Shown here: piece by piece, positions 8,812-57,447 of the stretch
How positions within the stretch are numbered: position 1 is the stretch's first letter
Layout: each line of letters begins with the position of its first letter
Assembly (NCBI GenBank): GCA_049323295.1
Contig: JBMOON010000050.1
Span: forward strand, 344,790 to 408,789
DNA: 64,000 nucleotides
Reading direction: 5' to 3'
Origin: Pseudomonadota bacterium
GTDB lineage: Bacteria; Pseudomonadota; Gammaproteobacteria; Pseudomonadales; JADFDG01
Made by a program: the position numbers and the translations under genes
Notes under the pieces: model-generated
The model's database searches: none
What the model saw: the letters and a program-made list of their open reading frames with translations, nothing else
What the model was told of the DNA's origin: nothing

Positions 8812-8971
8812 CCGCCAGCGGTAAACGCCGCCGGGCGATCCGTTTCCTGCCGCCGCCGCTGGTCGGCTGTCGGCGCCCCGCGGCCGGGAGGCGGGTTCCT
8901 GCCAGACGGATACATCGTGTATACCTTGGCCCGGGCCGCATGCCGCCGGCCGTCCGCCATCCGGAGTTCCG

Positions 8972-42782: not shown

Positions 42783-43241
42783 TCAGACGATGGTGAACAG
42801 CGGCTGGTCGAATTCGACCGGCTGGCCGTTTTCGACCAGGATGGCTTCGATCACGCCGGACTTGTCGGCGGTGATCTGGTTCATCATTTTCATGGCCTCG
42901 ACGATGCACACCACGTCGCCGACCTTGACCGAAGCGCCGACTTCGACGAACGAGGGCGAGCCCGGCGACGGCGAGCGATAGAACGTGCCGACCATGGGCG
43001 AGCGCATCACGTGGCCGCTGCGCTTGTTTTCTTCCTTCTTGCTGCCTGCATCGGCCGGCGCGGCGGCAGCCGGTGCCGGCGCGGCGGCGGCCGGCGGTGC
43101 CGCCATCGCGTAGGTGACCGGACCGGACGGCGGGCGGTTGCGGGCGATGCGCACCGTTTCCTCGCCTTCCTTGATTTCCAGCTCGTCGATGCCGGATTCC
43201 TCGAGCAGTTCGATCAGTTTCTTGATCTTGCGGATGTCCAT
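42783..43241 (-). CDS. accB: Acetyl-CoA carboxylase biotin carboxyl carrier protein
   Basis: 152 aa with the biotinylation motif [11 protein letters not shown] and a Pro/Ala linker. Confidence 0.93.
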
Positions 43242-43312
43242 GTGTCTCGGGTGCCTTGTGGGACGGGTGAGGTGGACGCCGCCGCTCCGGATGGGGTCGG
43301 CGGCAGTTGGGT

Positions 43313-43747
43313 TCAGAGTCGTTTCAGGGCGGCGGCAAGGGCCAGCTCGTAGCTCTGGGCGCCGAGGCCGCTGATGACGCCGACGGCGACATCGGAGAAG
43401 TAGGAGTGCTGCCGGAACGCCTCGCGCGCGTGGACGTTCGACAGGTGCACTTCGATGAACGGGATCTGCACCGCGAGCAGCGCGTCGCGCAGTGCCACCG
43501 AGGTGTGGGTGAAGGCGGCCGGATTGATCAGGATGAACTCGACGCCTTCCTTCTTCGCCTCGTGGATGCGCTCCACGAGTTCGTACTCGGCGTTGCTCTG
43601 CAGGGTCAGCAGGTGATGGCCGGCGGCCTTCGCGGCGGCGGCGAGCCGGCCGTTGATGTCGGCCAGCGTATCGGTGCCGTACTTGTCCGGTTCACGGCTG
43701 CCGAGCAGGTTCAGGTTCGGCCCGTGCAGCACCAGGATGGTGGCCAT
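43313..43747 (-). CDS. aroQ: Type II 3-dehydroquinate dehydratase
   Basis: 144 aa with [17 protein letters not shown] and [12 protein letters not shown] motifs. Confidence 0.93.
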
Positions 43748-43930
43748 GCCGTGTTCTCCCCGGAAAATGGGTTCTGGGCGCCGGGGAATTGCCCCGGGTG
43801 CGTGACCGTCCAGTCATATGGATGGGCACGCAAAACAGGCGGGGAGTCTAGGGGTGGCCGGAGGGCTTGGGAACCGGGTCCCAACACTTCCTTACAAACT
43901 GTGACGAGGCGGAACGATGGTCACAGGGTG

Positions 43931-45793
43931 TCAGCCGGATCCCTGCAGGTTCGGGTCAATTCGGGTTTTCAGCCAGTCCAGGAAGGCCGCCTCGTCCTGT
44001 TCGCCGAGGATCCGCTGGCCGGTCACTTCGCTGCCGTCGGGGCGGAAGAAGAGGATGGCCGGCAGGCCGGGGATCCCGTACTCGCGCAGCAGGGCCGCGT
44101 TGGCGTCGGTGTTGGCGGTCACGTCGACCTGCAGCAGGACATAGCCGGCCAGCGCGGCCTGGACGGCAGGGCGGGGGAACACGTTGCGGGCCATGATCCG
44201 GCAGGCCACGCACCAGTCGGCGTAGAAGTCGAGCATGACCGGTTTGCCGGCGGCCCGGGCCTGCGCCAGCGCCTGCTGCAGGGCGGCGGAATCCGGCACC
44301 CGGACGAACAGGGAGTGGCGGTCGGCGGCGGTGACCGCGCCGCCGGCAAAGGGCTGCAGCGGAGCCAGCGGATCGTCGCCGCCGGCCGCGGCGCCCGCCC
44401 CCAGGGCCAGGCCGTAGGCGAGCAGGGCGACGCCGGCGGCCTTGCGGAACCAGCGCCACCCGGTCGCGGCTGCCGGCACCGGTTCCAGCGCGCCCAGATA
44501 GACCCCCGAACCGATCGCCAGCAGGGCCCACAGCGCCAGCGTCACCGGACCGGGGAGGATGCGGGCGAGCAGGATCACCGCCACCCCGAGCAGCAACACG
44601 CCGAAGGCGGCCTTCACCCCGTCCATCCAGGCGCCGGCTTTCGGCAGCAGGCGGCCACCGGAGGTGCCGATCAGCAGCAGCGGGATGCCCATGCCGAAGG
44701 CCAGCGCGAACAGTGCGGCGCCGCCGAGCACGGCATCGCCGGTGGCGCCGATGAACATCAGGGCGCCGGCCAGGGGCGCCGACACGCAGGGCGATACCAC
44801 CAGCGCCGACACCGCTCCCATCAGTGCCACCGATCCGAAACCGCCGCCGCGCTGTCCGCTGCCGGCCAGCCGGTCGCGCAGGAAGGCCGGCAACTGCAGC
44901 TCGTAGAAGCCGAACATCGACAGCGACAGCAGCACGAACAGCAGGGCGAACACGACCAGCACCGGCGGCGACTGCAGCCACAGCTGGATGTTGAATGCGG
45001 CGCCGACCAGGCCGATCGCCACGCCGGCGAGCGTGTAGGTGAGCGCCATGCCGAGCACGTAGGCCAGCGAGAGCAGGAAGGCGCGGCGGGTGGAAATCGC
45101 GGCGCCTTCGCCGACGATGATCGACGACAGGATCGGCACCATCGGCAGCACGCAGGGGGTGAAGGCCAGCCCGATGCCCAGCAGCAGGAAGGTGCCGGCG
45201 ATCGCGAGGAACGAGGCGCCGGCCAGGAAGCCGGCCAGCGAGCCGGCGTCGTTGCCGGCAGGAGCAGCCGGCGTGACGGCTGCCGGTTGCGTGCCGGATC
45301 CGGCAGGGGCCGCCGCTGCCGACATGCCGGTGAAATCCACCGGCCATTCTTCCGTTTCCGGGGCGTAGCAGAAGCCCGCCTCGGCGCAGCCCTGGTAGGT
45401 GATGCGCAGCGTGGCGGGTGCGGACGGCACGCTGCGCAGCGGCAGCCGCAGCGCAACTTCGTGGTGATATACCTCGACCAGTCCGAAGATCTCGTCGTCC
45501 TTCATCTCGCCGCGCGGTGCTTCCGGCGCGCCGAGGGCGTCGATCGCATTGCCGGCGGCATCGACCAGCGCGAAGCGGAACTTGTCGCGATACAGGTAGT
45601 AGTCGTCGGCGATTTTCCAGCGGGCGATGAAGGCGTGGTCGTCGCGTTCCAGGGTCAGCGCGAAGGCTTCGCGCACCGGCAGGAAATCGTCTTCCGATGC
45701 GGTGCCCGGCAGGGCGGCGGCGGCACCGCCGGCGAACAGCAGCAGCCAGCACGACAGCAGCAGGCGGAAGATCGGGGCGCGGGCGGTCGGCAT
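43931..45793 (-). CDS. dsbD: Thiol:disulfide interchange protein DsbD
   Basis: Track ORF trimmed to MPTARAPIFRLLLSCWLLLFAGGAAAA (ATG at 45791-45793). It has an alpha domain (YQGCAEAGFC), a polytopic beta domain with the two TM Cys contexts (FTPCVLP, VSPCVSAP) and a thioredoxin gamma domain (FYADWCVACR). Confidence 0.9.
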   Translation of the reverse strand: MPTARAPIFRLLLSCWLLLFAGGAAAALPGTASEDDFLPVREAFALTLERDDHAFIARWKIADDYYLYRDKFRFALVDAAGNAIDALGAPEAPRGEMKDDEIFGLVEVYHHEVALRLPLRSVPSAPATLRITYQGCAEAGFCYAPETEEWPVDFTGMSAAAAPAGSGTQPAAVTPAAPAGNDAGSLAGFLAGASFLAIAGTFLLLGIGLAFTPCVLPMVPILSSIIVGEGAAISTRRAFLLSLAYVLGMALTYTLAGVAIGLVGAAFNIQLWLQSPPVLVVFALLFVLLSLSMFGFYELQLPAFLRDRLAGSGQRGGGFGSVALMGAVSALVVSPCVSAPLAGALMFIGATGDAVLGGAALFALAFGMGIPLLLIGTSGGRLLPKAGAWMDGVKAAFGVLLLGVAVILLARILPGPVTLALWALLAIGSGVYLGALEPVPAAATGWRWFRKAAGVALLAYGLALGAGAAAGGDDPLAPLQPFAGGAVTAADRHSLFVRVPDSAALQQALAQARAAGKPVMLDFYADWCVACRIMARNVFPRPAVQAALAGYVLLQVDVTANTDANAALLREYGIPGLPAILFFRPDGSEVTGQRILGEQDEAAFLDWLKTRIDPNLQGSG

Positions 45794-45845
45794 CGGCAGG
45801 TTCCGGTCGGGGTTGCTGGACGGTGCTGCAGTGTCGGGGGTCAGC

Positions 45846-45862
45846 GTTAAGGGCTGCTTAAG
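45846..45862. promoter_or_regulatory. Palindromic motif GTTAAGGGCTGCTTAAG, copy 1 (candidate operator, dsbD-proximal)
   Basis: TTAAG-N5-CTTAA dyad located 53 nt upstream of the dsbD start. It matches copy 2 at 15 of 17 positions. It is AT-rich in a GC-rich intergenic region. Confidence 0.35.
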
Positions 45863-45961
45863 CGATGGGAACACAGGGTTCGCGGCCGGATTCCGTATCC
45901 GGCGCCCGGCGGTCGGGGATTCTACCCGCACGGCAGGCGGTCCGGTTTTCCGCAGCAGGCG

Positions 45962-45978
45962 GTTAAGGGTCGCTTAAG
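45962..45978. promoter_or_regulatory. Palindromic motif GTTAAGGGTCGCTTAAG, copy 2 (candidate operator, tlpA-proximal)
   Basis: The same dyad lies 43 nt upstream of the TlpA-like gene start, 116 bp from copy 1. Confidence 0.35.
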
Positions 45979-46021
45979 GAGCGCCGGGCGAAAGTGCTGC
46001 CTGTCCTTTGCGGAGGTTGCC

Positions 46022-46486
46022 ATGCCTGCCAACGTTGCCCGTCGTTCTTTCCTGCGGAAAAGCCTGTGGCTGCTGTGCGGGCTGCTGCTGTTGCCGGCTG
46101 CAGTGCCGGCTGCGGGACTCGATCTGGCCGCCCATCGCGGCAAGGTGGTCTATCTGGATTTCTGGGCCTCCTGGTGCGTGCCCTGCCGGAAATCGTTCCC
46201 CTGGCTGAACGAGCTGGCCGCCCGCTATCCCGACGATCTGGTGATCGTCGGCATCAATGTCGACCACGAGCGTGCGGCGGCGGACAAGTTCCTCGCGAAG
46301 TACCCGGCCTCGTTCCCGCTGGCTTTCGATCCCGACGGTCTGCTGGCGAAGGAGTACCGGCTGCAGGGCATGCCGTCGAGCGTCATCGTCGACCGCGAAG
46401 GCCGGATTGCCGAACGACACATCGGTTTCCGCGAAGAGCAGAAGCCGGCGTACGAATCGGCGCTGAAAAAACTGATGGGCAGATGA
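46022..46486 (+). CDS. Secreted TlpA/ResA-like thioredoxin-fold thiol:disulfide oxidoreductase
   Basis: 154 aa. The signal peptide or anchor (LWLLCGLLLLPAAVPAAG) is followed by the active site YLDFWASWCVPCRKSFP. GGAGG lies 7 nt upstream of the ATG. Confidence 0.88.
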   Translation: MPANVARRSFLRKSLWLLCGLLLLPAAVPAAGLDLAAHRGKVVYLDFWASWCVPCRKSFPWLNELAARYPDDLVIVGINVDHERAAADKFLAKYPASFPLAFDPDGLLAKEYRLQGMPSSVIVDREGRIAERHIGFREEQKPAYESALKKLMGR

Positions 46487-46514
46487 TCCGGCCGGTACCG
46501 GAGGCGGAGTGAGC

Positions 46515-46727
46515 ATGAAAACCGCGATCGTATCGGCAGCGCTGGCCTTGCTGGCAGGCTGCAGCAGCATGGGCGTGGAGCCCTGGGAGCGCGACGTGCT
46601 CGCGCGACCGGAAATGAACTTCGGCCACGATGCCGTGGCGCGCGGTCTGGACGACCACATCTACTTTTCCAAGGAGGCGTCCAGCGGCGGCCGCGGATTC
46701 GGCGGTGGAGGTTGCGGATGCAACTGA
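46515..46727 (+). CDS. Small lipoprotein, DUF4266-like, ending GGGGCGCN
   Basis: ATG at 46515 (the track begins at GTG 46509), with GGAGG upstream. The lipobox is LLAGC (Cys16). The mature peptide is about 55 aa with a Gly-rich tail and a C-terminal Cys-Gly-Cys-Asn. Confidence 0.75.
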   Translation: MKTAIVSAALALLAGCSSMGVEPWERDVLARPEMNFGHDAVARGLDDHIYFSKEASSGGRGFGGGGCGCN

Positions 46728-47941
46728 AAAATCCAGGCCGGATTTCCGGCGCGGTCGCCATGGCGGCCGGGTCCCTGCTCGGCAGCCACGCGGTTGCCGG
46801 CGACGGGAAATGGCAACTCGACACTTCGTTGATGTATTACGGCGAAACGGATCGCGTGACGGCGGTGGAGCCGGTGCTGAACGCACGCCGCGAACTCGGC
46901 GAGGACGAGTTCCTCAACGTGAAGATGGTTCTGGATTCGCTGACCGGCGCTTCGCACAACGGCGCCCCGGTGCGACCCCGGGTGCAGACCTTCACCAGCC
47001 CGAGCGGCCACAAGACCTACGACGTGCCCGCCAATACCGTGCCGCTGGACGAATCGTTCAAGGACACGCGCGGCAACGTTGCCCTGTCCTGGGAGCGCCC
47101 GCTGGCCAATCCGCTGTGGCGTTCGACGCTCGGCACCAATGTGTCTTCCGAATTCGATTTCTTCTCGTTCGGTGTCAACGGCAGTCTGGCCCGCGACTTC
47201 AACCGGCGTAACACCACGGTCACCGGCGGCCTGTCGGTCGAGAGCGATGTCATCAGCCCGGTCGGCGGCGTGCCGGTTCCGCTGGCGCCGGTCAACATCG
47301 CGTCGCCGGACAGTGCGAAGGACGGCAGCGAGGAAACCCGGACCGTCACCGACGTGCTGCTGGGCGTGACCCAGGTGCTGGGACGCAACACCATCGCGCA
47401 GCTGAACTACAGCCTGAGCATGTCGAGCGGTTATCACAACGACCCGTACAAGGTGGTGGCCGACGACAGCGTGACGGCAGCGCCGGGCTCGTTCTACTAC
47501 GAGTCGCGGCCGGACAGCCGCACCAAGCATGCGCTGTACGGCGAGCTGAAACACGCGCTACCGAACCGCGACGTGGTCGATGCGTCCTACCGCTTCATGA
47601 CCGATGACTGGGGTATCGTTTCGCATACCGTCGACCTGCACTACCGGCATTTCCTGCGCGCCGACTGGTTCGTCGAGCCGCACGTCCGCTGGTACGCACA
47701 GGGCGAGGCCGACTTCTGGACCGAAGCCCTGCCGGCGGCGCCGGCGCCCGGCGATTTCGCGTCCGGCGATTACCGGCTGGGTGCGCTGACCGACACCACG
47801 TTCGGCGCGAAAATCGGCAAGCGTCTCGGCGAAGACCGCGAGATCAGCATGCGCGTCGAATCCTTCCAGCAGAGCGGCGACACCGAGGCAGCGGACGTCT
47901 CGGCGCTGATCCTGGAGTTCGGGTACAGTTTCCGCTGGTGA
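46718..47941 (+). CDS. DUF3570-like predicted outer-membrane beta-barrel protein
   Basis: ATG at 46718 (the track begins at TTG 46712), with GGAGG 7 nt upstream; it overlaps the preceding gene by 10 nt. It has a signal peptide, an alternating amphipathic pattern and the C-terminal beta-signal LILEFGYSFRW. It also contains DSLTGAS at 46934-46954. Confidence 0.8.
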   Translation: MQLKNPGRISGAVAMAAGSLLGSHAVAGDGKWQLDTSLMYYGETDRVTAVEPVLNARRELGEDEFLNVKMVLDSLTGASHNGAPVRPRVQTFTSPSGHKTYDVPANTVPLDESFKDTRGNVALSWERPLANPLWRSTLGTNVSSEFDFFSFGVNGSLARDFNRRNTTVTGGLSVESDVISPVGGVPVPLAPVNIASPDSAKDGSEETRTVTDVLLGVTQVLGRNTIAQLNYSLSMSSGYHNDPYKVVADDSVTAAPGSFYYESRPDSRTKHALYGELKHALPNRDVVDASYRFMTDDWGIVSHTVDLHYRHFLRADWFVEPHVRWYAQGEADFWTEALPAAPAPGDFASGDYRLGALTDTTFGAKIGKRLGEDREISMRVESFQQSGDTEAADVSALILEFGYSFRW

Positions 47942-47968
47942 TGCCGGTGCCGGCCGCAGGGAGAGGCG

Positions 47969-48628
47969 ATGCGCGTATTGCTGGTGGAGGACGACGAGCT
48001 GCTCGGCGACGGCCTGCGCACGGCGCTGCTGCGCACCGGCCATGCCGTCGACTGGCTGAAGGACGGCGAGCACGCGCGCCAGGCCGTTGACGGCGAGGGT
48101 GCGGAACACTGGGACGTTGTCCTGCTCGATCTCGGGTTGCCGCGCCGTGACGGCATGGAAGTGCTGCGGACCATCCGCCGCCGGTCTGCCGTGCCGGTGC
48201 TGGTGATGACGGCGCGCGACCAGGTCGATGACCGGGTGCAGGGACTGGACGCGGGTGCCGACGATTATCTCGTCAAGCCGTTCGACATCGCGGAACTCGA
48301 GGCCCGTCTGCGTGCCGTCAGCCGCCGGCGCGCGGGACGCGCGACCGACGAGCTCCGCTGTGGCGACCTGCGGTTGCTGCCGGCAGCGCAGGAGGCATTC
48401 TGGCGTGGCGAACGCATCGATCTGACCCGGCGCGAGTACATGCTGCTGTCGACGCTGGTCGACAACGCCGGCCGCGTGCTCACCCGCGACCGCCTCGAGC
48501 AGGCGCTGTACGGCTGGGGCGACGACGTCGACAGCAACGCACTCGAAGTCCACATCCATCATCTGCGGCGCAAGCTGGCACCGGATTTCATCCGCACGGT
48601 GCGCGGCGTCGGTTATTCGGTGGGCTGA
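47969..48628 (+). CDS. OmpR/PhoB-family response regulator (QseB/PmrA-like)
   Basis: 219 aa. The receiver (MRVLLVEDDELL, VVLLDLGLPRRDG, DDYLVKPF) is followed by a winged-helix domain (LTRREYMLLSTL, IRTVRGVGY). Confidence 0.92.
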   Translation: MRVLLVEDDELLGDGLRTALLRTGHAVDWLKDGEHARQAVDGEGAEHWDVVLLDLGLPRRDGMEVLRTIRRRSAVPVLVMTARDQVDDRVQGLDAGADDYLVKPFDIAELEARLRAVSRRRAGRATDELRCGDLRLLPAAQEAFWRGERIDLTRREYMLLSTLVDNAGRVLTRDRLEQALYGWGDDVDSNALEVHIHHLRRKLAPDFIRTVRGVGYSVG

Positions 48629-50076
48629 TGGCCGCCGGATCGCGCTTCTCCATCCGCCGTTACCTGCTGGCCACGCTGCTGGCGCTGCTGGTGCTCGGCA
48701 TGGGCGTGGCCGGCGTGCTGGCCTACCGGGCCGCGCTGTCGGAAGTCGAGGAGTTGTTCGACGCGCAGCTGGCGCAATCGGCGCGGGTGCTGATCGCCAC
48801 TCTGGCCACCGGCCCGCTGCCGGGCGAGGCAACCGGCGAGCCGGTCGTGTTTCCGGCCTGGCGACCGGCGCCGGGCGCGCTGCCTGCCGCGCCGGCGACC
48901 GGTGCCGCGGCGATCGCCGACGACGAAGCCACGCCATCCGGTCATCGTTACGAGACGCGACTGCTGTTCCAGGTGTGGCGGGGTGCGGGCGAGCGGTTGC
49001 TGATGCGTTCCTCGAACGCGCCGGAGCGACCGCTGGTGGCGTTCACCCCGGGTTATGCGCAGATCTGGATCGGCGACGAGCGCTTCCATGTCTTCGTGCT
49101 CGAGCACGACGGAGTCTGGCTGCAGGCCGCGCAGGACGATTACATGCGCGACGAGCTGGCAGGCGACATCGCGCAGGCGACGCTGCTGCCTTACCTGCTT
49201 GCCGTACCGTTGATGGCGCTGTCGATCTGGTGGCTGGTGAGCCGCGGCCTGCGGCCGCTCGACCGCCTGCGTGCGGCGCTCGCCGGGCGGGGCGTCGGCA
49301 ATCTGGCGCCGCTGTCGGCCGCCGGCGGCAGCACCGAGCTGCAGCCGCTGGTCGACGAGCTCAACCGGCTGCTCGCCCGGCTGCACGATTCGTTCGCCCG
49401 CGAACGACGCTTCACCGCCGATGCGGCGCACGAGCTGCGCACGCCGCTGGCGGCGCTGCGCGTGCAGGCAGAAAATGCCGCCGCCGCCACCGACGAAACG
49501 GCGCGGCGCCGGGCGCTGGATAACCTGCTGCACGGCGTCGACCGGGCGAGCCGGCTGGTTTCGCAGATGCTCATCATGGCGCGCCTGGAACCGGAAGACG
49601 TGGCGCGCTCGTTCGTGGCGGTACCGGTCGGCACCCTGGTCCGCGAGGAACTCGCCGCGCTTGCGCCGCTGGCGCTGGCGCGCGGCCAGGAGCTGGATTT
49701 TCTCGACGAATCGGCCGGGCTCGCGGTGCCGGGTGATGCGCCGGCCCTCGGCATCCTGGTGCGCAATCTGGTGGACAACGCGTTGCGTTATTCGCCGCCG
49801 GGCTCGCTGGTGCGGGTGCTGTTGCGGCCGGTGGAGCCGCGACAGCTCGAACTGCGGGTGCTCGACGAGGGTCCGGGCGTGCCGCCGGCGCTGGGTGAGC
49901 GGGTATTCGAACGCTTCTTCCGCGGCGACAGCGGCGACGGCGACGGTGCCGGCCTCGGTCTTGCCATCGTGCGCCGCATCGTCCAGCTGCACGGCGGCGC
50001 AGTGTCGGTGCTGCCGCGGCAGGGCACGCTGCCCGGCGGTTTCCGGGTCGTGCTGCCGGCAGTGGCGACACCGTGA
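48628..50076 (+). CDS. Sensor histidine kinase (QseC-like, two TM with periplasmic loop)
   Basis: 482 aa. The start overlaps the regulator stop (TGATG). It has an H-box (FTADAAHELRTPLAAL) plus N, G1 and G2 boxes (LVDNALRYSP, DEGPGV, GAGLGLAIV). Confidence 0.9.
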   Translation: MAAGSRFSIRRYLLATLLALLVLGMGVAGVLAYRAALSEVEELFDAQLAQSARVLIATLATGPLPGEATGEPVVFPAWRPAPGALPAAPATGAAAIADDEATPSGHRYETRLLFQVWRGAGERLLMRSSNAPERPLVAFTPGYAQIWIGDERFHVFVLEHDGVWLQAAQDDYMRDELAGDIAQATLLPYLLAVPLMALSIWWLVSRGLRPLDRLRAALAGRGVGNLAPLSAAGGSTELQPLVDELNRLLARLHDSFARERRFTADAAHELRTPLAALRVQAENAAAATDETARRRALDNLLHGVDRASRLVSQMLIMARLEPEDVARSFVAVPVGTLVREELAALAPLALARGQELDFLDESAGLAVPGDAPALGILVRNLVDNALRYSPPGSLVRVLLRPVEPRQLELRVLDEGPGVPPALGERVFERFFRGDSGDGDGAGLGLAIVRRIVQLHGGAVSVLPRQGTLPGGFRVVLPAVATP

Positions 50077-50966
50077 ACGACTGGCAAGTGGTATCCGTCG
50101 GCGGCCGCCTGCACGGCCGTTTCTCCGCCATGGCCAGTCCCTGCGAAATCCTGGCGCACGGTGCCGACGAGAACATGCTGGCGCGCCTGACCGCGCTGGC
50201 GCATGGAGAAGCGATCCGCATCGAACGCAAGTTCAGCCGCTATCGCGACGACAGCGTGCTGGCGCGGATCCATGCCGGCAACGGCAACGCGGTGCCGATC
50301 GACGACGAGACCTGGCGTCTGCTGCAGTACGCGGACGAGCTTTACCGCTTGTCGGACGGGCTTTTCGACATCACCTCCGGCGTGCTGCGCCGCGCCTGGA
50401 AATTCGACGGTTCCGATCGAGTACCGTCGGCGGCGCAGGTGGCGGAACTGCTGCCGCTGATCGGCTGGTCGCGCGTGCAGTGGGACCGGACGTCGATCCG
50501 CCTCGCGCCGGGCATGCAGATCGATTTCGGCGGCATCGGCAAGGAATATGCGGTCGACCGCGCGCTCGCGCTGCTGGCGGCGGAATTCCGCGGCCCGCTG
50601 CTGGTGAATTTCGGCGGCGACCTCGCAGCCGCCGCCGGCGACACCGCTGCAGGCGTACCGGCGCACGAATGGAGTGTCGGCATCGAGGCGGCGGACGGCG
50701 GCCGCGAAGGCGTCATCCGGCTGCGGTCCGGCGGTATCGCCACCAGCGGCGATGCACGTCGTTTCCTGCTGAAGGACGGCGTACGCTACGGCCACATCCT
50801 CGACCCGCGTACCGGCTGGCCGGTGCCGCAGGCGCCGCGGTCGGTGACGGTGATGGCGCGCACCTGCCTGGAAGCCGGTACCCTGTCGACCCTGGCGATG
50901 CTGCAGGGGGCGGGAGCGGAGGCCTTTCTCGCCGCCCAGGACTTGCCGTACCGGATCCAGCGCTGA
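50073..50966 (+). CDS. apbE: FAD:protein FMN transferase (ApbE family), no recognisable signal peptide
   Basis: 297 aa. The GTG start overlaps the kinase stop (GTGA). ApbE motifs are present: FSRYRDDSVLARIH, LFDITSG, DFGGIGKEYAVD, GIATSGD and HILDPRTG. Confidence 0.85.
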   Translation: MNDWQVVSVGGRLHGRFSAMASPCEILAHGADENMLARLTALAHGEAIRIERKFSRYRDDSVLARIHAGNGNAVPIDDETWRLLQYADELYRLSDGLFDITSGVLRRAWKFDGSDRVPSAAQVAELLPLIGWSRVQWDRTSIRLAPGMQIDFGGIGKEYAVDRALALLAAEFRGPLLVNFGGDLAAAAGDTAAGVPAHEWSVGIEAADGGREGVIRLRSGGIATSGDARRFLLKDGVRYGHILDPRTGWPVPQAPRSVTVMARTCLEAGTLSTLAMLQGAGAEAFLAAQDLPYRIQR

Positions 50967-51007
50967 ACGGCGATCGTGTCGCCGTCCGGCAACGACAGTC
51001 GTATGGA

Positions 51008-51952
51008 ATGCCGTTCATGGAACAGCCACCCGGCGAAAACCGTCTCGAAACCTTTCTGCTCGACAGTGCCGCGCGACCGCGCCGCGGTACCGGGCGCTGG
51101 TTGCCGCGCATCCTGCTGGTGCTGGGCCTGCTGGCGCTGATGTTCGGCGGCTGGTGGAGCCGCGAGCCGGCCGTGCCCGATGGCCGGGTGCCGCCGGATG
51201 CGGCGCCGGGCGTCGCCGTCACGGCGGCGCTGGTCGCCACCGTGCGCACGCTGCTGGAGAAGCCGGGCGGCTTCCTGGCCAACGATGCGCTGCCGCCGGG
51301 CGTGCTGCTCGACAACATGCCGGCCTTCGAGAACGGCGCGCTGGCCGCTTCGCGCACCCTGCTGCGGGCACTGCGCCGCGATTTCAGCCGTGCGCAGACG
51401 CAGTCGGTCGAGGATCCCGATCTGCTGCGCGCCGAACCGCGACTGAACTTCGACAGCGGCAGCTGGCTGGTGCCGTCGGCGGAAAGCGAATACGGCGATG
51501 CGCTGGCGGCACTCGAAAACTATCTGGCACGCCTGCAGATGTCTCCGCCGGGTGCGCGGTTCCAGGCGCGTGCCGACAACCTCGGGCGCTGGCTCGACGA
51601 GGTCGGCGCGCAGCTGGACGAACAGGGACGCCTGCTGGCGACCGCCCGCCACGACACGCCCTGGCTGGCGATCGACGACCGTTTCTATTTCACGCGCGGC
51701 TATTGCTGGGCGCTGCGGGCGCAACTGCTGGCACTGCGCCGCGACTTCGCGACCACGCCGGCACTCGATGCCGGTTTCGCCGCCGCCCTGCATGCGCTCG
51801 ACGGTACGCAGCAGCCGGTGACCAGCCCGCTGATCCTGAACGGCGGTGAATACGGCGTGCTTGCCAACCACTCGCTGGTCATGGCCGGTCATGTCGGGCG
51901 TGTCGCGGCCGCCCTGCGACAGCTGCGCGTACCGGGGCCGGCGGGCGACTGA
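51008..51952 (+). CDS. DUF2333-like protein with N-terminal TM anchor
   Basis: In-frame ATG at 51008 (alternative 51017) within track ORF 49271..51952. The TM is WLPRILLVLGLLALMFGGWW. The family call rests on the conserved stretch GGFLANDALPPGVLLDNMPAFENG and is from memory. Confidence 0.72.
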   Translation: MPFMEQPPGENRLETFLLDSAARPRRGTGRWLPRILLVLGLLALMFGGWWSREPAVPDGRVPPDAAPGVAVTAALVATVRTLLEKPGGFLANDALPPGVLLDNMPAFENGALAASRTLLRALRRDFSRAQTQSVEDPDLLRAEPRLNFDSGSWLVPSAESEYGDALAALENYLARLQMSPPGARFQARADNLGRWLDEVGAQLDEQGRLLATARHDTPWLAIDDRFYFTRGYCWALRAQLLALRRDFATTPALDAGFAAALHALDGTQQPVTSPLILNGGEYGVLANHSLVMAGHVGRVAAALRQLRVPGPAGD

Positions 51953-51954
51953 CC

Positions 51955-53907
51955 ATGGTCGTGACGACCGGGCTGCACGAAGCGCTGGAACGCATCGCGG
52001 CGACGGGCGATGCCGATGCGCTGGGCAGTCTGTTGCCGGCGCTGCGCCGTGCCGAGGGCGAACAGGCCGGTGCCGGCATCGACGCGCTCTGCCATTTCCT
52101 CGAGCACTACCCGGCGTACCGCAAGGCGCTGCGGTACCTGCTCTGCCGGCTGCTCGGCGACGACAGTGCGCCGGCGTTGTATGCCGAAACCGGCATCCTC
52201 GCCAACACCGGCTTCGTCACCGAATTCGGTCGTCGCCTGCTCGGCAAGGTGTTGCCGCCGCCGCGCGACGACAGTCTGCGCGGTCGTTTCCACGGCTGGT
52301 TCGACGACGGCGACGCTGCGGAGTGGATCGCGGCCGTGCCTGCCGCTGCGTGGTGCCGGCTGCATGCCGCACTGCGTTTCGACGAGGACGAGCCTGCCGC
52401 ATGGCGCCCGGCACGACTCGGGCTGGTCGAGGCGCTGGCCGTGCTGTCGGTGCGAGTGGCAGCGGTCGGCGTCGAGCCGGAGCTGTTGCGGCACTACCGC
52501 GTGCCGCGCGACCACGGCAATCCTTTCCTCGCGCAGAGTGCCGAACTGCAGCGCTGGCTCGATGCCTGGCGCGCGGGAGCGGAACTGCCGGATGCGCGCC
52601 AGCTGGACGTGCTGCTGGCACAGTGCGTCGACGTGGCCGACAAGGTGCGGCGCGCCGCGCATCGTGAAGGCGCCAGTTTCCGGCTGACGTTCGTGTTGCG
52701 CCGGCTGGCGCAGCTGCTGGCGCGGATGCGTACGCTGATCGGCCTGCTGGCCGCCGGTCCCGTGCCGACGCCGGCCCTCGTGCAGGCGCGCGCGGCGCTG
52801 GCGGTCGAGCTGGTTGTCGCCGAAGCGGCCGACCACGGCATCCGGGAACATTTGCGCTCCGGCTCCGAGCTGGTCGCATTGCAGGTCACCGAGCACGCGA
52901 GCCGGACCGGCGAGCACTACATCACCGTCGATCGTCGCGAGTATCTGGCGATGTGGCGGGCGGCGCTGGGCGCCGGCGGCATCATCGGCATCATGGCGCT
53001 GGTCAAGACGCTGCTCGCCGGCCTGCACCTGCCGCCGCTGGTCGAGGCGCTGGCGTTCAGTCTCAACTACGCCGCCGGTTTCGTACTCATCTATGCGCTG
53101 CGTTTCACCATCGCCACGAAACAACCGGCGATGACGGCGCAGACCATCGCCGCGCAGCTGTCGTCCGGCCGCCGGACCGATGTCGATGCCGTGGCGCTGC
53201 TGGTATCGCGGGTGGCGCGCACCCAGTTCGTGGCCGTGCTGGGCAACGTCATGCTGGCGATGCCGGCGGCCTTTGCGGTGACCTGGCTGGCGGTGACGCT
53301 GGGCGCGGCCGCTCCGGCCGCCAAGGTGCCGGTCCTGCTGCAGGATCTCGACGTGCTGGCCAGTCCGGCGCTGTTCCATGCGGCGATTGCCGGTGTGTGG
53401 TTGTTCTGCGCCGGTCTGGTGTCCGGTTATGTCGACAATCTGGCCGCCTACGAGCGGCTGGCCGACCGGGTGCGCGCCATGCGCATGCTGCGCTCGCTGG
53501 GCGCCGGCCGACACGAGCGACTGGCCTGCTGGCTGCAGGACCACACCGGCGGCGTTGCCGGCAATCTGTTCTTCGGCTTTGCGCTCGGCATGACGGGTTT
53601 CGTCGGCATGATCCTCGGGCTGCCCCTCGACATCCGGCATGTGACGTTCGCGGCTGCCAATCTGGCGATTGCCTGGGTCGGCAGCGGGCTGGCGCTGCCG
53701 GCCGGCGTGATCCTGGTGTCGCTGGCCGGCGTGGCGCTGATCGCGCTGACCAACGTGGCCGTGAGTTTCGGTCTGGCGCTGTGGCTGGCCCTGCGCGCAC
53801 GCGGACAGGGCTTCGACAACTTCGGGCTGCTCGTCGCGGCGTTGTGGCGCCGCTTCCGGCTGGCGCCGCTGGCCTTCGTGCTGCCGCCGCGCCACGAGAA
53901 ATCCTGA
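51955..53907 (+). CDS. Polytopic membrane protein of the family historically annotated site-specific recombinase (PF10136-like)
   Basis: 650 aa, starting 2 nt after the preceding stop. A soluble N-terminal half is followed by at least 6 predicted TMs in the C-terminal half. It has no Tyr- or Ser-recombinase motifs. The family call is from memory. Confidence 0.72.
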   Translation: MVVTTGLHEALERIAATGDADALGSLLPALRRAEGEQAGAGIDALCHFLEHYPAYRKALRYLLCRLLGDDSAPALYAETGILANTGFVTEFGRRLLGKVLPPPRDDSLRGRFHGWFDDGDAAEWIAAVPAAAWCRLHAALRFDEDEPAAWRPARLGLVEALAVLSVRVAAVGVEPELLRHYRVPRDHGNPFLAQSAELQRWLDAWRAGAELPDARQLDVLLAQCVDVADKVRRAAHREGASFRLTFVLRRLAQLLARMRTLIGLLAAGPVPTPALVQARAALAVELVVAEAADHGIREHLRSGSELVALQVTEHASRTGEHYITVDRREYLAMWRAALGAGGIIGIMALVKTLLAGLHLPPLVEALAFSLNYAAGFVLIYALRFTIATKQPAMTAQTIAAQLSSGRRTDVDAVALLVSRVARTQFVAVLGNVMLAMPAAFAVTWLAVTLGAAAPAAKVPVLLQDLDVLASPALFHAAIAGVWLFCAGLVSGYVDNLAAYERLADRVRAMRMLRSLGAGRHERLACWLQDHTGGVAGNLFFGFALGMTGFVGMILGLPLDIRHVTFAAANLAIAWVGSGLALPAGVILVSLAGVALIALTNVAVSFGLALWLALRARGQGFDNFGLLVAALWRRFRLAPLAFVLPPRHEKS

Positions 53908-53919
53908 GCGGTGCGGCGG

Positions 53920-53956
53920 AAACGAAAAAGCCGCGCATCGCGCGGCTTTTTCGTTT
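53920..53956. terminator. Strong bidirectional Rho-independent terminator
   Basis: The sequence is aaacgaaaaagccgcgc-atc-gcgcggctttttcgttt: a perfect 17-bp stem including A/T runs on both sides. It lies between the convergent PF10136-like gene and ppa. Confidence 0.8.
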
Positions 53957-53968
53957 GACCCGGAAGAC

Positions 53969-54496
53969 TTATTTCTTCGCGGCCTTGATCGCTTTCTCGA
54001 TCTCGACCTTCGCGTCGGCGGCGTTGCCCCAGCGCTCGACCTTCACCCACTTGCCGGGTTCCAGGTCCTTGTAGTTCTCGAAGAAGTGCTGGATCTGCTG
54101 CGGCAGCAGCGGCTGCAGGTCGGCCACTTCCTTCACGTTCTTGTACAGCGCCGACAGCTTGTCGTGCGGTACGGCGATCAGCTTGGCGTCGCCGCCGGCT
54201 TCGTCGTTCATGAACAGGATGCCGATCGGGCGGCAGCGGACCACCGAACCCGGCGCCACCGGATACGGCGTCACGACCAGCACGTCCAGCGGATCACCGT
54301 CGTCGCCCAGCGTGTTCGGGATGTAGCCGTAGTTGGCCGGATAGAACATCGGGGTGGCCATGAAACGGTCGACGAACAGGGCGTGGCTTTCCTTGTCGAT
54401 CTCGTACTTGATCGGGCTGGAGTTGGCCGGGATCTCGATGACCACGTAGATGTCGTCGGGCGGGGCCTTGCCGGGCGTAACCTTGGTGAAATCCAT
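53969..54496 (-). CDS. ppa: Inorganic pyrophosphatase (family I)
   Basis: 175 aa with [39 protein letters not shown] and [12 protein letters not shown], the canonical family I PPase motifs. Confidence 0.96.
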
Positions 54497-54581
54497 GGGA
54501 ATCTCTCGTTGTCGGTAGGGCGAGGGGGTATCGGCGGGCGCGGATTATAGACCGGGAGTCCCGCTCCGGCAGGCCTGCCGG

Positions 54582-55247
54582 TCAGAGGGTTTCGTCGGCG
54601 CCGCGGCCCTGGCCGATGGCCAGGGCCTCGTTCCACTGCAGCATGATGTCGGTGAGCTGCCAGATCTGGCGGTCCAGGCTCTGCAGTTCATCCACGGTGT
54701 TCTTCTCGCCGCGGAAGATCTCTACCTGCCGCAGCTCCTTCGACAGCGGGTGGTCCGGGTGTTCCATGCGGTACACCTCGAGTTTCCAGCGCGTGTTGTG
54801 CGCCACCATGCGCCAGAACGCCAGCTTGGTCGGCAACTTGATGCGCTGGAAGTTGGTCAGGTCGCCGAAGGGCGTGAAGTCGGTACCGAACAGCATCACC
54901 TTGGACACTTTCGGATCGGCGACGATGGTGGCGGTGCGCGGCGTGCGGCACAGCAGCGACAGGGCGCCGAACACCTGGCCGGCAGACAGGTAGTTCACGG
55001 CCGGGCGCGCGAGGTCGCCGTCCGGATACACCACCAGCTGGCCGCGGAGCAGGAAGTAGAACGTTTCCGCCCGGTCGCCCTTGCGGACCACGATTTCGCC
55101 CGGCGTAGGCTCGAAGATGCGCGAGAAGCGCAGCAGCGTGTCGGTCTGCTCGCGGCTTTCCAGCATCAGGTCCTTGAAGAACGGAATGCCCGAGAGCAGG
55201 GTATCCAGCGTATCTGCCGGATAGGCGGTGAGCGCCAGCGTTTTCAT
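54582..55247 (-). CDS. Cyclic-nucleotide-binding domain protein with uncharacterised C-terminal half
   Basis: 221 aa. The CNB fold (IPFFKDL, GEIVVRKGDRAETFYFLLRGQL) has a variant phosphate-binding cassette, FGALSLLCRTPRTATIVA, in which Ala replaces the usual Glu. The gene follows pfk after 33 nt. Confidence 0.8.
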   Translation of the reverse strand: MKTLALTAYPADTLDTLLSGIPFFKDLMLESREQTDTLLRFSRIFEPTPGEIVVRKGDRAETFYFLLRGQLVVYPDGDLARPAVNYLSAGQVFGALSLLCRTPRTATIVADPKVSKVMLFGTDFTPFGDLTNFQRIKLPTKLAFWRMVAHNTRWKLEVYRMEHPDHPLSKELRQVEIFRGEKNTVDELQSLDRQIWQLTDIMLQWNEALAIGQGRGADETL

Positions 55248-55280
55248 CGGTCGACTCCTGTCTTCGGGATGGTGCCGGGC

Positions 55281-56726
55281 TTATTTCTTCAGTTCGAACG
55301 CGGTGGACAGTTTTTTCGGCACGGCCGTGTTTTTCAGCTGCACGTATTGCGGCAGGCCGTCCTTGTAGGGCGGGTGGTCCTCGCCGCGGATCAGCGGCGC
55401 CAGGTAGCGGCGTGCCTTGTCGGTGATGCCGAAGCCGTCGGCGGTGATGAAGTCGCGCGGCATTTTCTTCTCGACGTTGGCCACCTGTGCCAGCGGCGCC
55501 TCGCCGATCGTCCATTGGTACGGCGCATCCGACTTGCGGACGATGGTGGGCATGATCGCATTGTGGCCCTTCAGGGCCAGTTCGACCGCGGCCTTGCCGA
55601 CCGCATAGGCCTGCTCGACGTCGGTTTTCGAGGCGATGTGGCGTGCCGAGCGCTGCAGGTAGTCCGGCACCGCCCAGTGGTACTTCAGCTTCAGGTTGTT
55701 CTTCACCAGCGCCGCCAGGGCCGGCGCAACGCCGCCCAGCTGCGTGTGGCCGAAGGCATCGACGGTGCCGGCGTCGGCGAGAAAGCGGCCGTCGGCGTAT
55801 TTCGCGCCTTCGGAAACGACGATCACGCAGTAGCCGACGCGCTTCACCGTCTCATCGACCTTCTTCAGGAAGGCTTCCGGCTCGAAGGCAATTTCCGGGA
55901 ACAGGATGATGTGCGGCGGTTCGTCGCCGCCGTTGCCGGCGAGGCCGGCTGCCGCGGCGATCCAGCCGGCGTGGCGGCCCATCGCTTCCATGATGAAAAC
56001 CTTGGTGCTGGTTTTCGCCATCGAGGCGACATCCAGTGCGGCTTCTTTCACCGAGATGGCGCTGTACTTGGCGACCGAGCCGAAGCCCGGGCAGTTGTCG
56101 GTGAGCGGCAGGTCGTTGTCGACCGTTTTCGGTACATGGATGGCCTGGATGGGGTAGCCCATCGTTTCGCTGAGCTGGGAAATCTTCAGGCAGGTGTCGG
56201 CGGAGTCGCCGCCGCCGTTGTAGAAGAAGTAGCCGATGTCGTGCGCCCTGAAGACTTCGATCAGGCGTTCGTACTCGGCACGGTTCTGTTCCAGCGATTT
56301 CAGCTTGTAGCGACAGGAGCCGAAGGCGCCGGCCGGCGTATGGCGCAGGGCGGCGATGGCGGCGGCGGACTCCTTCGAGGTATCGATCAGGTCTTCCAGC
56401 AGGGCACCGATGATGCCGTTGCGTCCCGCATACACCTTGCCGATGCGGTTGCCGTGCTTGCGCGCCGTCTCGATCACGCCGCAGGCGGTGGCGTTGATGA
56501 CGGCGGTCACGCCGCCGGACTGCGCATAGAAGGCGTTGCGCGGCCGGGCTTTTGCCGCGGACTTTTTCGCCGGCTTCGCGGCGCCGGCTTTCCGGACCGG
56601 TTTCTTCGCGGCGGTTCCGGCTTTCGGTGCGGCCCTCCGGCCGGCGGCCTTCGGAACCGGGCGGGCGGCGGGCTTGCGGGCGGCGGCGGAGCGGCGGGCG
56701 GGCTTGCGGGTTTTGCTGGCGGTCAT
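55281..56726 (-). CDS. Phosphofructokinase family protein (PKTVDND type; ATP or PPi donor not resolved) with 63-aa Lys/Arg/Ala/Pro N-terminal tail
   Basis: Track ORF trimmed to the ATG at 56724-56726 (MTASKTRKPARR). The PFK core starts at NAFYAQSGGVTAVINA and includes YNGGGDSADT, HVPKTVDNDLP and MGRHAGW. No in-frame ATG, GTG or TTG lies between the first Met and the core. Confidence 0.88.
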   Translation of the reverse strand: MTASKTRKPARRSAAARKPAARPVPKAAGRRAAPKAGTAAKKPVRKAGAAKPAKKSAAKARPRNAFYAQSGGVTAVINATACGVIETARKHGNRIGKVYAGRNGIIGALLEDLIDTSKESAAAIAALRHTPAGAFGSCRYKLKSLEQNRAEYERLIEVFRAHDIGYFFYNGGGDSADTCLKISQLSETMGYPIQAIHVPKTVDNDLPLTDNCPGFGSVAKYSAISVKEAALDVASMAKTSTKVFIMEAMGRHAGWIAAAAGLAGNGGDEPPHIILFPEIAFEPEAFLKKVDETVKRVGYCVIVVSEGAKYADGRFLADAGTVDAFGHTQLGGVAPALAALVKNNLKLKYHWAVPDYLQRSARHIASKTDVEQAYAVGKAAVELALKGHNAIMPTIVRKSDAPYQWTIGEAPLAQVANVEKKMPRDFITADGFGITDKARRYLAPLIRGEDHPPYKDGLPQYVQLKNTAVPKKLSTAFELKK

Positions 56727-56904
56727 GGCGTGCCTGCGGAGACACGGTCGGCGGGCGGGCCCGCGCGGCCGGATGCATGTGGAGGGGGACGGGAAGACGG
56801 CGGCGATGATACCGGAGGGCGCCGGGCGGGGGAAAACCCGTGGTCCGCGGCCGACGCCCGGGACGTCCGGCAGCGGGCGTGTAAACTTCCCGCATCCCGG
56901 TTCG

Positions 56905-57447
56905 ATGACCCCGCCCATGCCCCGCGAATTCACCCTGTTCTGGAACCTGTGCCTGCTGCGCACGAGTCCCGACCAGATTCCCTATTCGCTGCCGCTGGCC
57001 TGGCTGGTGTTCGCGCTCTGGGCTGCCGTGGCCCTGCCGCTGGTGCTCAGTGTGCCGGGTCTGGAAGGCGCCCGGGTTCCGCTGTTCCTGGCGGCCACGG
57101 CCGGTGTCGAGTTCGTCGTGGTGGCCGTGCTGCTGGGCACGCGCGGCCTCGGGTCCCGCCTGCTGCAGACCATGACGGCGCTGCTCGGCGCCGATCTGGT
57201 GCTCAACCTGCTGTCGTGGCCGATGGTGTTGCCCTTTGCCGGCGAGCGCACGCCGGAAGCGGTCGCCGCGGCAGTGGGACAGTTGCTGCTGTTCGGCTGG
57301 AGCATCGCCGTGAAGGGCCATATCCTGCGTTCGGCACTCGAGTTGCCGCGATTCGCCGCCTACATGCTCGCGGTGGCCATTGCCTTCGGCACGATGGTGG
57401 CGGTCGGCGTCCTGTTTCCCGACCTGGCCGCGGCGCCCCGCGACTGA
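56905..57447 (+). CDS. Hypothetical inner-membrane protein (about 5 TM)
   Basis: In-frame ATG at 56905 (alternative 56917) within track ORF 56536..57447. The 180-aa product is largely hydrophobic. No family is recognised. Confidence 0.65.
   Translation: MTPPMPREFTLFWNLCLLRTSPDQIPYSLPLAWLVFALWAAVALPLVLSVPGLEGARVPLFLAATAGVEFVVVAVLLGTRGLGSRLLQTMTALLGADLVLNLLSWPMVLPFAGERTPEAVAAAVGQLLLFGWSIAVKGHILRSALELPRFAAYMLAVAIAFGTMVAVGVLFPDLAAAPRD

Follow-up and report, generated by a model that had tools for sequence, protein, structure and literature searches.

Does a run of eight co-directional genes that begins beside dsbD encode one envelope pathway, or does it join units of separate standing? The locus lies in a 64,000-nucleotide stretch of a Pseudomonadota bacterium genome (assembly GCA_049323295.1, contig JBMOON010000050.1, positions 344,790 to 408,789), hereafter called the window. 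Reading away from dsbD, the genes code for a secreted thioredoxin-like (Trx-like) protein, a DUF4266 lipoprotein, a DUF3570 protein, an OmpR-family response regulator (RR), a periplasm-sensing histidine kinase (HK), an ApbE-family FAD:protein FMN (flavin mononucleotide) transferase, a DUF2333 protein and a PF10136 protein. An original prediction made from the sequence had treated all eight as a self-regulated pathway that combines thiol and flavin chemistry and reaches the outer membrane. Our analysis makes it likely that the array is instead a composite of three units: a redox core served by dsbD, a two-component system (TCS) that probably regulates it, and a DUF2333/PF10136 pair of neighbors. 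The pair had carried much of the claimed novelty and is now best explained as a syntenic neighbor. What is new beside the known core is the TCS with its conserved putative operator, the predicted placement of DUF3570 as an outer-membrane barrel, and an ApbE without a signal peptide, which are useful increments.

The core is a published system

Clusters composed of ApbE, DUF3570, a thioredoxin-like protein and DUF4266 have been named "DsbD systems" by Méheust, Huang, Rivera-Lugo, Banfield and Light (2021, eLife 10:e66878; PMC8238504), who counted 227 of these clusters in which DsbD is present and 316 in which it is absent. Using co-expression and mutagenesis, these authors found that the cognate ApbE attaches flavin to two [S/T]GA[S/T] motifs of the DUF3570 protein of Chlorobium luteolum, and they also remarked on the C-terminal CXC of DUF4266 (PMC8238504). 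A reductive electron supply was proposed for the clusters that contain DsbD, and 25 clusters containing VIT1 hinted at iron assimilation; the paper leaves the physiological function uncertain (PMC8238504).

The same parts are present in the window. There is an ApbE-family gene (PF02424), a Trx-like protein with a WCVPC site co-localized with a DsbD (PF02683) that is divergent at 228 bp, and a small secreted DUF4266 protein with a C-terminal CXC. The Trx-like, DUF4266, DUF3570 and ApbE genes, together with the divergent dsbD, are a member of this known and partly characterized system. This match bears out the proposal of a thiol-plus-flavin envelope pathway fed by DsbD. It also makes out of date the view that no function is assigned to DUF4266 and DUF3570, given that the cluster and its flavinylation were assigned in 2021 (PMC8238504). 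The original prediction had conceded that an earlier publication on this cluster type would count against it, and one exists for four of the eight genes and for dsbD (PMC8238504).

The terms PF10136, PF10095 and DUF2333 have no occurrence in the text of that paper (PMC8238504), and therefore we computed the co-occurrence of DUF2333 and PF10136 with the core ourselves. One genome per GTDB species was scanned with a DUF3570 alignment, the best 80 loci were kept with up to 10 kb of flanking sequence, and nine proteins of the window were searched against these loci by tblastn. In 42 of the loci, called fully flanked here, DUF3570 has 4.5 kb or more of sequence to either side. A TCS was counted as the orthologous type when its RR identity was at least 44%.

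DUF4266 is located beside DUF3570 in all 42 fully flanked loci. The Trx-like gene is found there in 38 of the 42 (71/80 when all loci are counted) and ApbE in 37 (62/80). The TCS adjoins DUF3570 in 19 of the 42, and a divergent dsbD in 13. DUF2333 is present in only five fully flanked loci (5/80 overall), and PF10136 in none of them (1/80 overall). The question raised with the original prediction, whether the TCS and the terminal pair travel with the core, thus has a divided answer: the TCS does (19/42), whereas DUF2333 (5/80) and PF10136 (1/80) do not.

The dsbD gene itself belongs to a conserved prmA-accC-accB-aroQ-dsbD block, as judged from synteny in four loci (L081, L088, L093 and L094). 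It codes for the housekeeping transmembrane thiol reductase, which presumably acts as the electron donor of the core.

DUF2333 and PF10136 as neighbors of dsbD

Among the 80 loci, PF10136 accompanies the core only in L001, which derives from a 76%-identical sister metagenome-assembled genome, and DUF2333 follows the core only in the lineage of the window and in Alcanivoracaceae. In three other loci (L088, L093 and L094), dsbD is divergent from DUF2333, with or without PF10136, and no core genes are present. In Pseudomonas, DUF2333 is a solitary gene beside pilRS. PF10136 pairs with DUF2333 only in the lineage of the window and is otherwise found in unrelated contexts, either after a suf operon or alone. 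These distributions speak against counting the two proteins as pathway members, as had been proposed. They are best explained as resident syntenic neighbors of dsbD and not as components of the core. The simplest reading of the gene orders is that dsbD and DUF2333 are old syntenic partners between which the core now sits, apparently as an insertion, alone or together with the TCS, and that the order of the genes has since changed. The presence of DUF2333 beside dsbD where the core is missing hints that it has its own link to DsbD or to envelope biology.

Some details of these neighborhoods were noted in passing. In L093, a gene for a PCuAC copper chaperone sits between dsbD and DUF2333. In relatives with about 60% identity, L087 (3748-13169), L090 (3462-13309) and L091, the PF10136 gene comes directly after a complete sufBCDS-sufA-sufE operon and precedes an MPAB_Lcp_cat gene. 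We also considered a DUF2333-pilRS synteny common to Alcanivoracaceae and Pseudomonas, and rejected it because the gene downstream in L002 codes for an ABC1 kinase.

The proteins themselves offer few functional clues. An AlphaFold2 model of DUF2333 (mean predicted local distance difference test score, pLDDT, 86) consists of an N-terminal transmembrane anchor and a helical bundle. No PDB entry matched this model at E < 0.1 in a Foldseek comparison, and a search of solved structures with the sequence gave nothing significant. PF10136 is polytopic according to its hydropathy, with at least six hydrophobic segments and a large N-terminal soluble part. It has no relative in the PDB by sequence search of solved structures and no second domain match. 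The name "site-specific recombinase" that annotation attaches to this family looks like a misnomer for a polytopic protein that lacks a recombinase domain. Functional literature on DUF2333 or PF10136 was looked for and none was found.

All eight genes might nonetheless work together in a single pathway, to which DUF2333 and PF10136 would contribute inner-membrane or terminal components. The genes are co-directional, the last two junctions are tight (+41 and +2 nt), and the single strong terminator follows PF10136. In addition, four different gene orders with two downstream contexts all have DUF2333 as the last gene behind the core. We nevertheless regard this explanation as quite improbable, given the rarity of both genes at core loci, the occurrence of dsbD with a divergent DUF2333(-PF10136) where the core is absent, the solitary DUF2333 of Pseudomonas, the suf-associated or isolated copies of PF10136, and the lack of a redox motif or recognizable fold in either protein. 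If the pair is viewed instead as neighbors of dsbD, both genes may still be co-transcribed with the operon in the window, because no terminator precedes position 53920, but the comparison of loci lends no support to a function in common. Adjacency alone is insufficient for annotating DUF2333 and PF10136 as parts of the pathway, and the picture of the operon is corrected to that extent.

A probable dedicated two-component system with PmrA-like boxes

The regulator and kinase resemble well-known proteins without matching them closely. The RR scores 231 bits against the NCBIfam models for both QseB (cut-off 345) and PmrA (cut-off 330), and the HK scores 266 bits for QseC (cut-off 475) and 197 for PmrB (cut-off 314), so that all four values fall below the equivalog thresholds. 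By these scores the TCS is only a family-level relative of QseBC and PmrAB, and neither of these proper. Two transmembrane segments of the HK flank a sensor domain of about 150 amino acids, and the HisKA histidine is H268. The HK aligns over its full length, sensor domain included, with kinases that adjoin other core loci. An inspection of the sensor-domain alignment for a ligand-specific motif yielded just generic 2CSK_N features, such as HEVEELFDAQL.

The TCS adjoins the core in 23 of the 80 loci, with RR identities of 44-81%, and these loci span several gammaproteobacterial families. Its position varies. Most commonly it follows ApbE, but it can also be located directly after DUF3570 (the window, L001 and L012) or divergently upstream. 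A more divergent RR is found directly after DUF3570 in L042. Judged from these neighborhoods, the association of the TCS with the core is recurrent and independent of gene order.

The 64-kb window contains two copies of a direct repeat, TTAAG-N6-TTAAG, versus 0.00 expected, and both copies are in the spacer between dsbD and the Trx-like gene, where they share the form GTTAAGGG(C/T)(T/C)GCTTAAG. Of 74 evaluable loci, 36 carry the same repeat in the 300 bp that precede the first gene of the operon. Across the loci, its density is 2.29/kb upstream of the operon and 0.011/kb elsewhere, an enrichment of about 200-fold. Moreover, 20 of the 22 evaluable loci that have the TCS next to the core carry the box, versus 16 of the 52 others (Fisher p = 1.8e-6). 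One of the DUF2333-containing loci, L081, has neither TCS nor box. The boxes of the window fit the experimentally defined PmrA box, in which CTTAAG and xTTAAT are separated by 5 bp, as a tandem hexamer CTTAAG-N5-xTTAAx (PMC3973317).

The recurrence of the TCS beside the core and the conserved PmrA-like box upstream of the operon lend comparative backing to the proposal that the system is self-regulated. Box 2 (Table 1) is presumably where the RR encoded in the operon binds, and the TCS is probably a dedicated regulator of the core operon. Such two-component self-regulation of a DsbD system appears to be undescribed: the text of Méheust et al. contains no mention of two-component regulation, an outer membrane or a barrel for the DsbD system (PMC8238504).

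Perhaps the TCS also controls dsbD. In the spacers of L001, L002 and L003, the two boxes occupy opposite strands at a distance of about 20-35 bp, one directed at each gene, and this opposed arrangement hints at co-regulation of dsbD. Unlike these, the boxes of the window are 116 bp apart and have the same nominal orientation.

Another explanation is that the TCS is a general envelope regulator of the PmrAB/QseBC type that merely adjoins the cluster and has its main targets elsewhere. The top NCBIfam matches are indeed QseB/QseC and PmrA/PmrB, the box belongs to the general PmrA type, and the 16 loci with a box but no adjacent TCS indicate that the regulator can be encoded elsewhere. This arrangement seems unlikely to us when set against the 23 loci with an adjacent TCS in several gammaproteobacterial families and three positional variants, the confinement of the window's only two boxes to the dsbD-Trx spacer, and the scores below the equivalog cut-offs. 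Furthermore, a 4-nt overlap couples the translation of ApbE to that of the TCS in the window. A dedicated regulator thus remains our preferred reading.

DUF3570 as a predicted outer-membrane barrel and presumed flavin carrier

An AlphaFold2 model of DUF3570, computed from a 104-sequence alignment, has 16 antiparallel strands with a pLDDT of 92.3 and a predicted template modeling score of 0.85. When this model was compared with the PDB by Foldseek, the best matches were BcsC, FadL, AlgE, PelB and Occ channels, with E values of about 1e-8. A sequence search of solved structures with the DUF3570 profile returned nothing significant. The protein combines an even number of strands in the model with a signal peptide and an aromatic C-terminal beta-signal, GYSFRW, in its sequence. 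According to this model, DUF3570 is a Sec-exported 16-strand outer-membrane beta-barrel. The resemblance to BcsC, AlgE and FadL agrees with the earlier supposition that the pathway reaches the outer membrane.

In the DSSP string, the long loops (81-109, 180-205, 239-266 and 329-356) each follow an odd-numbered strand. The usual topology of outer-membrane proteins would place them on the extracellular side, or on the side that folds into the lumen. The only canonical flavinylation motif of the window protein is DSLTGAS (D73-S79, with S79 as the site). It is placed where strand 3 ends, and the loop that comes next (NGA...QTFTSPSG...Y...PLD) is the most conserved of the family. A degenerate second site, SSGY, is located at the end of strand 9. 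This form of the second site is present in most gammaproteobacterial loci, and a canonical TGA[ST] is found there only in L015, L049, L059 and L073. The number of FMN groups per barrel probably differs between lineages. By analogy with its flavinylated homolog from Chlorobium luteolum, the DUF3570 protein of the window is a presumed substrate of ApbE.

Two loci of the DUF2333-containing group have an additional copy of the gene. In L083 (1415-2620) and L084 (1347-2621), a second, solitary DUF3570 paralog is found just upstream of a complete core cluster, between aroQ and a dsbD-sized gene of 639 amino acids for which no Pfam match is on record.

An ApbE without an export signal

The ApbE protein lacks an N-terminal signal peptide or lipobox. 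Its gene overlaps the stop codon of the HK gene by 4 nt, there is no in-frame upstream start, and the N terminus, MNDWQVVSVGGRLHGRF, is hydrophilic. This is not peculiar to the window. About 60 cluster-associated ApbE homologs from several phyla (L002-L080) likewise have neither signal peptide nor lipobox, and begin with 15-25 polar residues followed by a conserved F-x-A-M-A-S-P-C-E, which replaces the canonical MGT. Judged from the motif F.AMASPCE, the ApbE of the window is a member of a DUF3570-associated clade. A cluster of this kind could have passed the filter of Méheust et al. because only one target gene per cluster needed a signal peptide (PMC8238504).

Where flavinylation happens is a puzzle, because ApbE has no export signal whereas DUF3570 is Sec-exported to the outer membrane. 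Three options are possible: DUF3570 is flavinylated before its export, ApbE is exported by an unrecognized route, or another ApbE acts on the barrel.

Thiol carriers and the proposed electron path

The Trx-like protein gives ResA/DsbE-like matches in NCBIfam that fall under the equivalog cut-offs. Of 72 homologs read, three are truncated open reading frames, and SWCxPC is present in nearly all. DUF4266 has a signal peptide with a lipoprotein cysteine (LLAGC|SS) and a glycine-rich C-terminal tail that ends GGGGCGCN (CGC-N). All 80 homologs share the GGGCGCN terminus and a lipoprotein-type cysteine, and in the window the gene overlaps that of DUF3570 by 10 nt.

We noted a twin-arginine-like ARRSFLRK within the signal peptide of the Trx-like protein (46022-46120). 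Export by the twin-arginine translocation (Tat) route was considered and rejected, since the pattern occurs in 5 of the 72 homologs and is missing from the closest relative, L001. The idea that the signal-less ApbE hitch-hikes on a Tat-exported Trx-like protein was dropped along with it. The ARRSFLRK stretch is probably incidental.

A path for electrons can be proposed from these features. Reducing equivalents from the cytoplasm would cross the inner membrane via DsbD and be passed to the secreted WCxPC Trx-like protein. From there they may move to the DUF4266 lipoprotein, whose glycine-rich tail bears an invariant C-terminal Cys-Gly-Cys, then to the FMN that ApbE would attach covalently to DUF3570, and finally to an acceptor at or beyond the outer membrane. 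The flavinylation motif is positioned where strand 3 meets the long, highly conserved loop, which by prediction is on the outward-facing or lumenal side. The embedded PmrAB/QseBC-like TCS would bind the CTTAAG-N5-CTTAAG-type boxes of the dsbD-Trx spacer and thereby control the operon, while DUF2333 and PF10136 would perhaps be read through from the operon without being obligate. We infer the order and direction of this relay, the binding of the regulator and the physiological acceptor.

One tentative extension, to which we give a rather low probability, is that DUF3570 and DUF4266 form a heme-free outer-membrane electron conduit. The signal-less ApbE would flavinylate the unfolded DUF3570 precursor, possibly in the cytoplasm, and the loop with FMN would come to lie in the barrel lumen. 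The CGC tail would deliver DsbD-derived electrons to this FMN from the periplasmic side, and these would leave the cell for an external acceptor, for example Fe(III). A PmrB-like sensor would switch the module on via the CTTAAG-N5-CTTAAG boxes.

The flow could also run in reverse, as in an Erv-like sulfhydryl oxidase. Periplasmic thiols would then supply electrons via the CGC to FMN, with O2 or an external acceptor as the final recipient, and the adjacency of DsbD would be synteny only. The yeast oxidase Erv2p carries a flexible C-terminal Cys-Gly-Cys shuttle next to its flavin, and the CGC tail beside a flavin in the window resembles this arrangement. The location of dsbD in a housekeeping block (aroQ-accBC-prmA) means that its adjacency could be positional, and it is near just 13 of the 42 fully flanked core loci. 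However, the Trx-like partner is of the reductive TlpA/ResA/DsbE type, and the two boxes that face both genes in dsbD-adjacent loci suggest co-regulation. DsbD is also present in 227 clusters for which a reductive supply has been proposed (PMC8238504). We therefore consider an oxidative path doubtful and retain the reductive direction.

Several points weigh against the composite reading or the path drawn from it. The 80 loci are those most similar to the query, so that their frequencies do not represent the family as a whole. DUF2333 comes after the core in four gene orders (the window with L001, L081, L083 and the Alcanivoracaceae loci) and has two downstream contexts, ppa and an ABC1 kinase gene. 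The gaps before DUF2333 are tight (7-104 nt) and contain no terminator, and a lineage-specific accessory role for this protein is possible. The missing signal peptide of ApbE is at odds with a simple periplasmic flavinylation step. The window has a single canonical [S/T]GA[S/T], and close relatives vary even this one (TGTS, TGSS, TGPS and TGNS).

Layout of the locus

The open reading frame coordinates confirm the eight co-directional plus-strand genes, their junctions (+28, -10, +27, -1, -4, +41 and +2 nt) and the 228-bp divergence from dsbD. Every family name that had been given from sequence alone withstood a profile search of the window proteins, with scores well past the Pfam gathering values. 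The described topologies agree with hydropathy except for that of ApbE, which has no hydrophobic N terminus. The strong terminator predicted after the last gene was recovered by folding, with a z score of -4.06 and no equally stable fold among 200 shuffles. This hairpin probably serves both PF10136 and ppa as a bidirectional intrinsic terminator. A simple terminator scan missed it because its T-run belongs to the stem. The array is flanked by accC-accB-aroQ-dsbD on one side and by ppa, a cNMP-binding protein gene and PFK on the other.

An Rfam scan of positions 45500-54200 for a riboswitch or leader gave no match near the gathering score. A sigma-70 promoter scan of 43000-57000 returned no sites, and such a scan is uninformative in a GC-rich genome.

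Table 1. Features of the array and gene orders in related loci. Positions are those of the window, or of the named locus in the last five rows.
Feature or locus	Position	Strand	Description
dsbD	43931-45793	-	DsbD_N, DsbD_TM and C-terminal thioredoxin domain (Pfam)
Box 1, GTTAAGGGCTGCTTAAG	45846-45862	.	TTAAG-N6-TTAAG direct repeat, 53 nt from the dsbD start codon
Box 2, GTTAAGGGTCGCTTAAG	45962-45978	.	Same repeat, 44 nt upstream of the Trx-like start codon
Trx-like protein	46022-46486	+	Secreted TlpA/ResA-like thioredoxin fold, 154 amino acids; Pfam Redoxin/AhpC-TSA/Thioredoxin_8 (Redoxin E 3e-19)
Trx-like active site WCVPC	46172-46186	+	From sequence
DUF4266 lipoprotein	46515-46727	+	70 amino acids; PF14086, E 2e-22
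DUF4266 C-terminal CGC	46713-46721		Near the end of the glycine-rich tail
DUF3570	46718-47941	+	407 amino acids; PF12094, E 8e-113
Flavinylation motif DSLTGAS	46934-46954	+	Canonical
Second flavinylation site SSGY	47423-47434	+	Degenerate
OmpR-family RR	47969-48628	+	Response_reg 1e-26, Trans_reg_C 2e-23
Periplasm-sensing HK	48628-50076	+	HisKA 4e-13, HATPase_c 8e-23; also 2CSK_N and HAMP
ApbE-family FAD:protein FMN transferase	50073-50966	+	PF02424, E 1e-65, 222 bits versus cut-off 25.6
DUF2333	51008-51952	+	Pfam E 1e-78
PF10136 ("SpecificRecomb")	51955-53907	+	Pfam E 1e-192
Terminator hairpin	53920-53956		17-bp stem between PF10136 and convergent ppa; folding dG -33.1 kcal/mol
L088	8998-12004		prmA-accC-accB-aroQ-dsbD, divergent DUF2333-PF10136; no core genes
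L094	8001-8987		prmA-accC-accB-aroQ block as in L088, dsbD, divergent DUF2333 ... ppa ... PFK ... mpl; no core genes
L093 (Litorivivens)	7523-9623		dsbD, divergent PCuAC-DUF2333; no core genes
L081			dsbD, divergent ApbE-Trx-DUF4266-DUF3570-DUF2333, then ppa; no TCS
L083/L084			Trx-DUF4266-DUF3570-ApbE-RR-HK-DUF2333, then ppa

Comparison with known systems

DUF3570 DsbD systems are found in hundreds of genomes, and the signal that induces the regulator would reveal the purpose of the system. As in the description by Méheust et al. (2021), the window has the five families DsbD, Trx-like, DUF4266 with CXC, DUF3570 and ApbE in one neighborhood, for which a hybrid thiol/flavin extracytosolic electron transfer has been proposed. 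It differs by the TCS between DUF3570 and ApbE and the PmrA-like boxes in the promoter region, by one canonical flavinylation motif in place of two, by an ApbE without a signal peptide, and by a Trx-like protein that matches Redoxin/Thioredoxin_8 and not PF13899. Neither the barrel placement of a flavinylated DUF3570 nor a signal-less cognate ApbE was found in the literature consulted.

PmrAB (BasRS) and QseBC of Enterobacteria share with the TCS of the window an OmpR-type RR, a 2CSK_N/HAMP/HisKA kinase with a periplasmic sensor, and a direct repeat resembling a binding site, CTTAAG-N5-xTTAAx. The window TCS scores well under the equivalog cut-offs of these systems and has a different presumed target operon. 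A PmrAB/QseBC-like TCS with a recognizable putative operator was likewise not found for the DsbD system in the literature consulted.

A presumably flavinylated protein that is a predicted outer-membrane barrel, encoded with a CGC lipoprotein, would make flavin-based electron transfer through the outer membrane conceivable. MtrAB-type porin-cytochrome conduits would be comparable in that a redox carrier is associated with an outer-membrane beta-barrel and supplied from the periplasm, and in that a partner protein has its gene immediately upstream, with an overlap of the two genes, a likeness that is only inferred. In contrast to these conduits, the window has no heme. It would rely on covalent FMN on the barrel itself and on a Cys-Gly-Cys lipoprotein. 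There is no kinship of sequence or family, and transfer across the membrane is a conjecture on our part.

Sulfhydryl oxidases of the Erv2p/ALR type offer a further parallel, in that they also have a Cys-Gly-Cys on a flexible tail near a flavin. They have other folds and use FAD, whereas the window presumably combines covalent FMN with a Cys-Gly-Cys on a separate polypeptide and moves electrons in the opposite direction.

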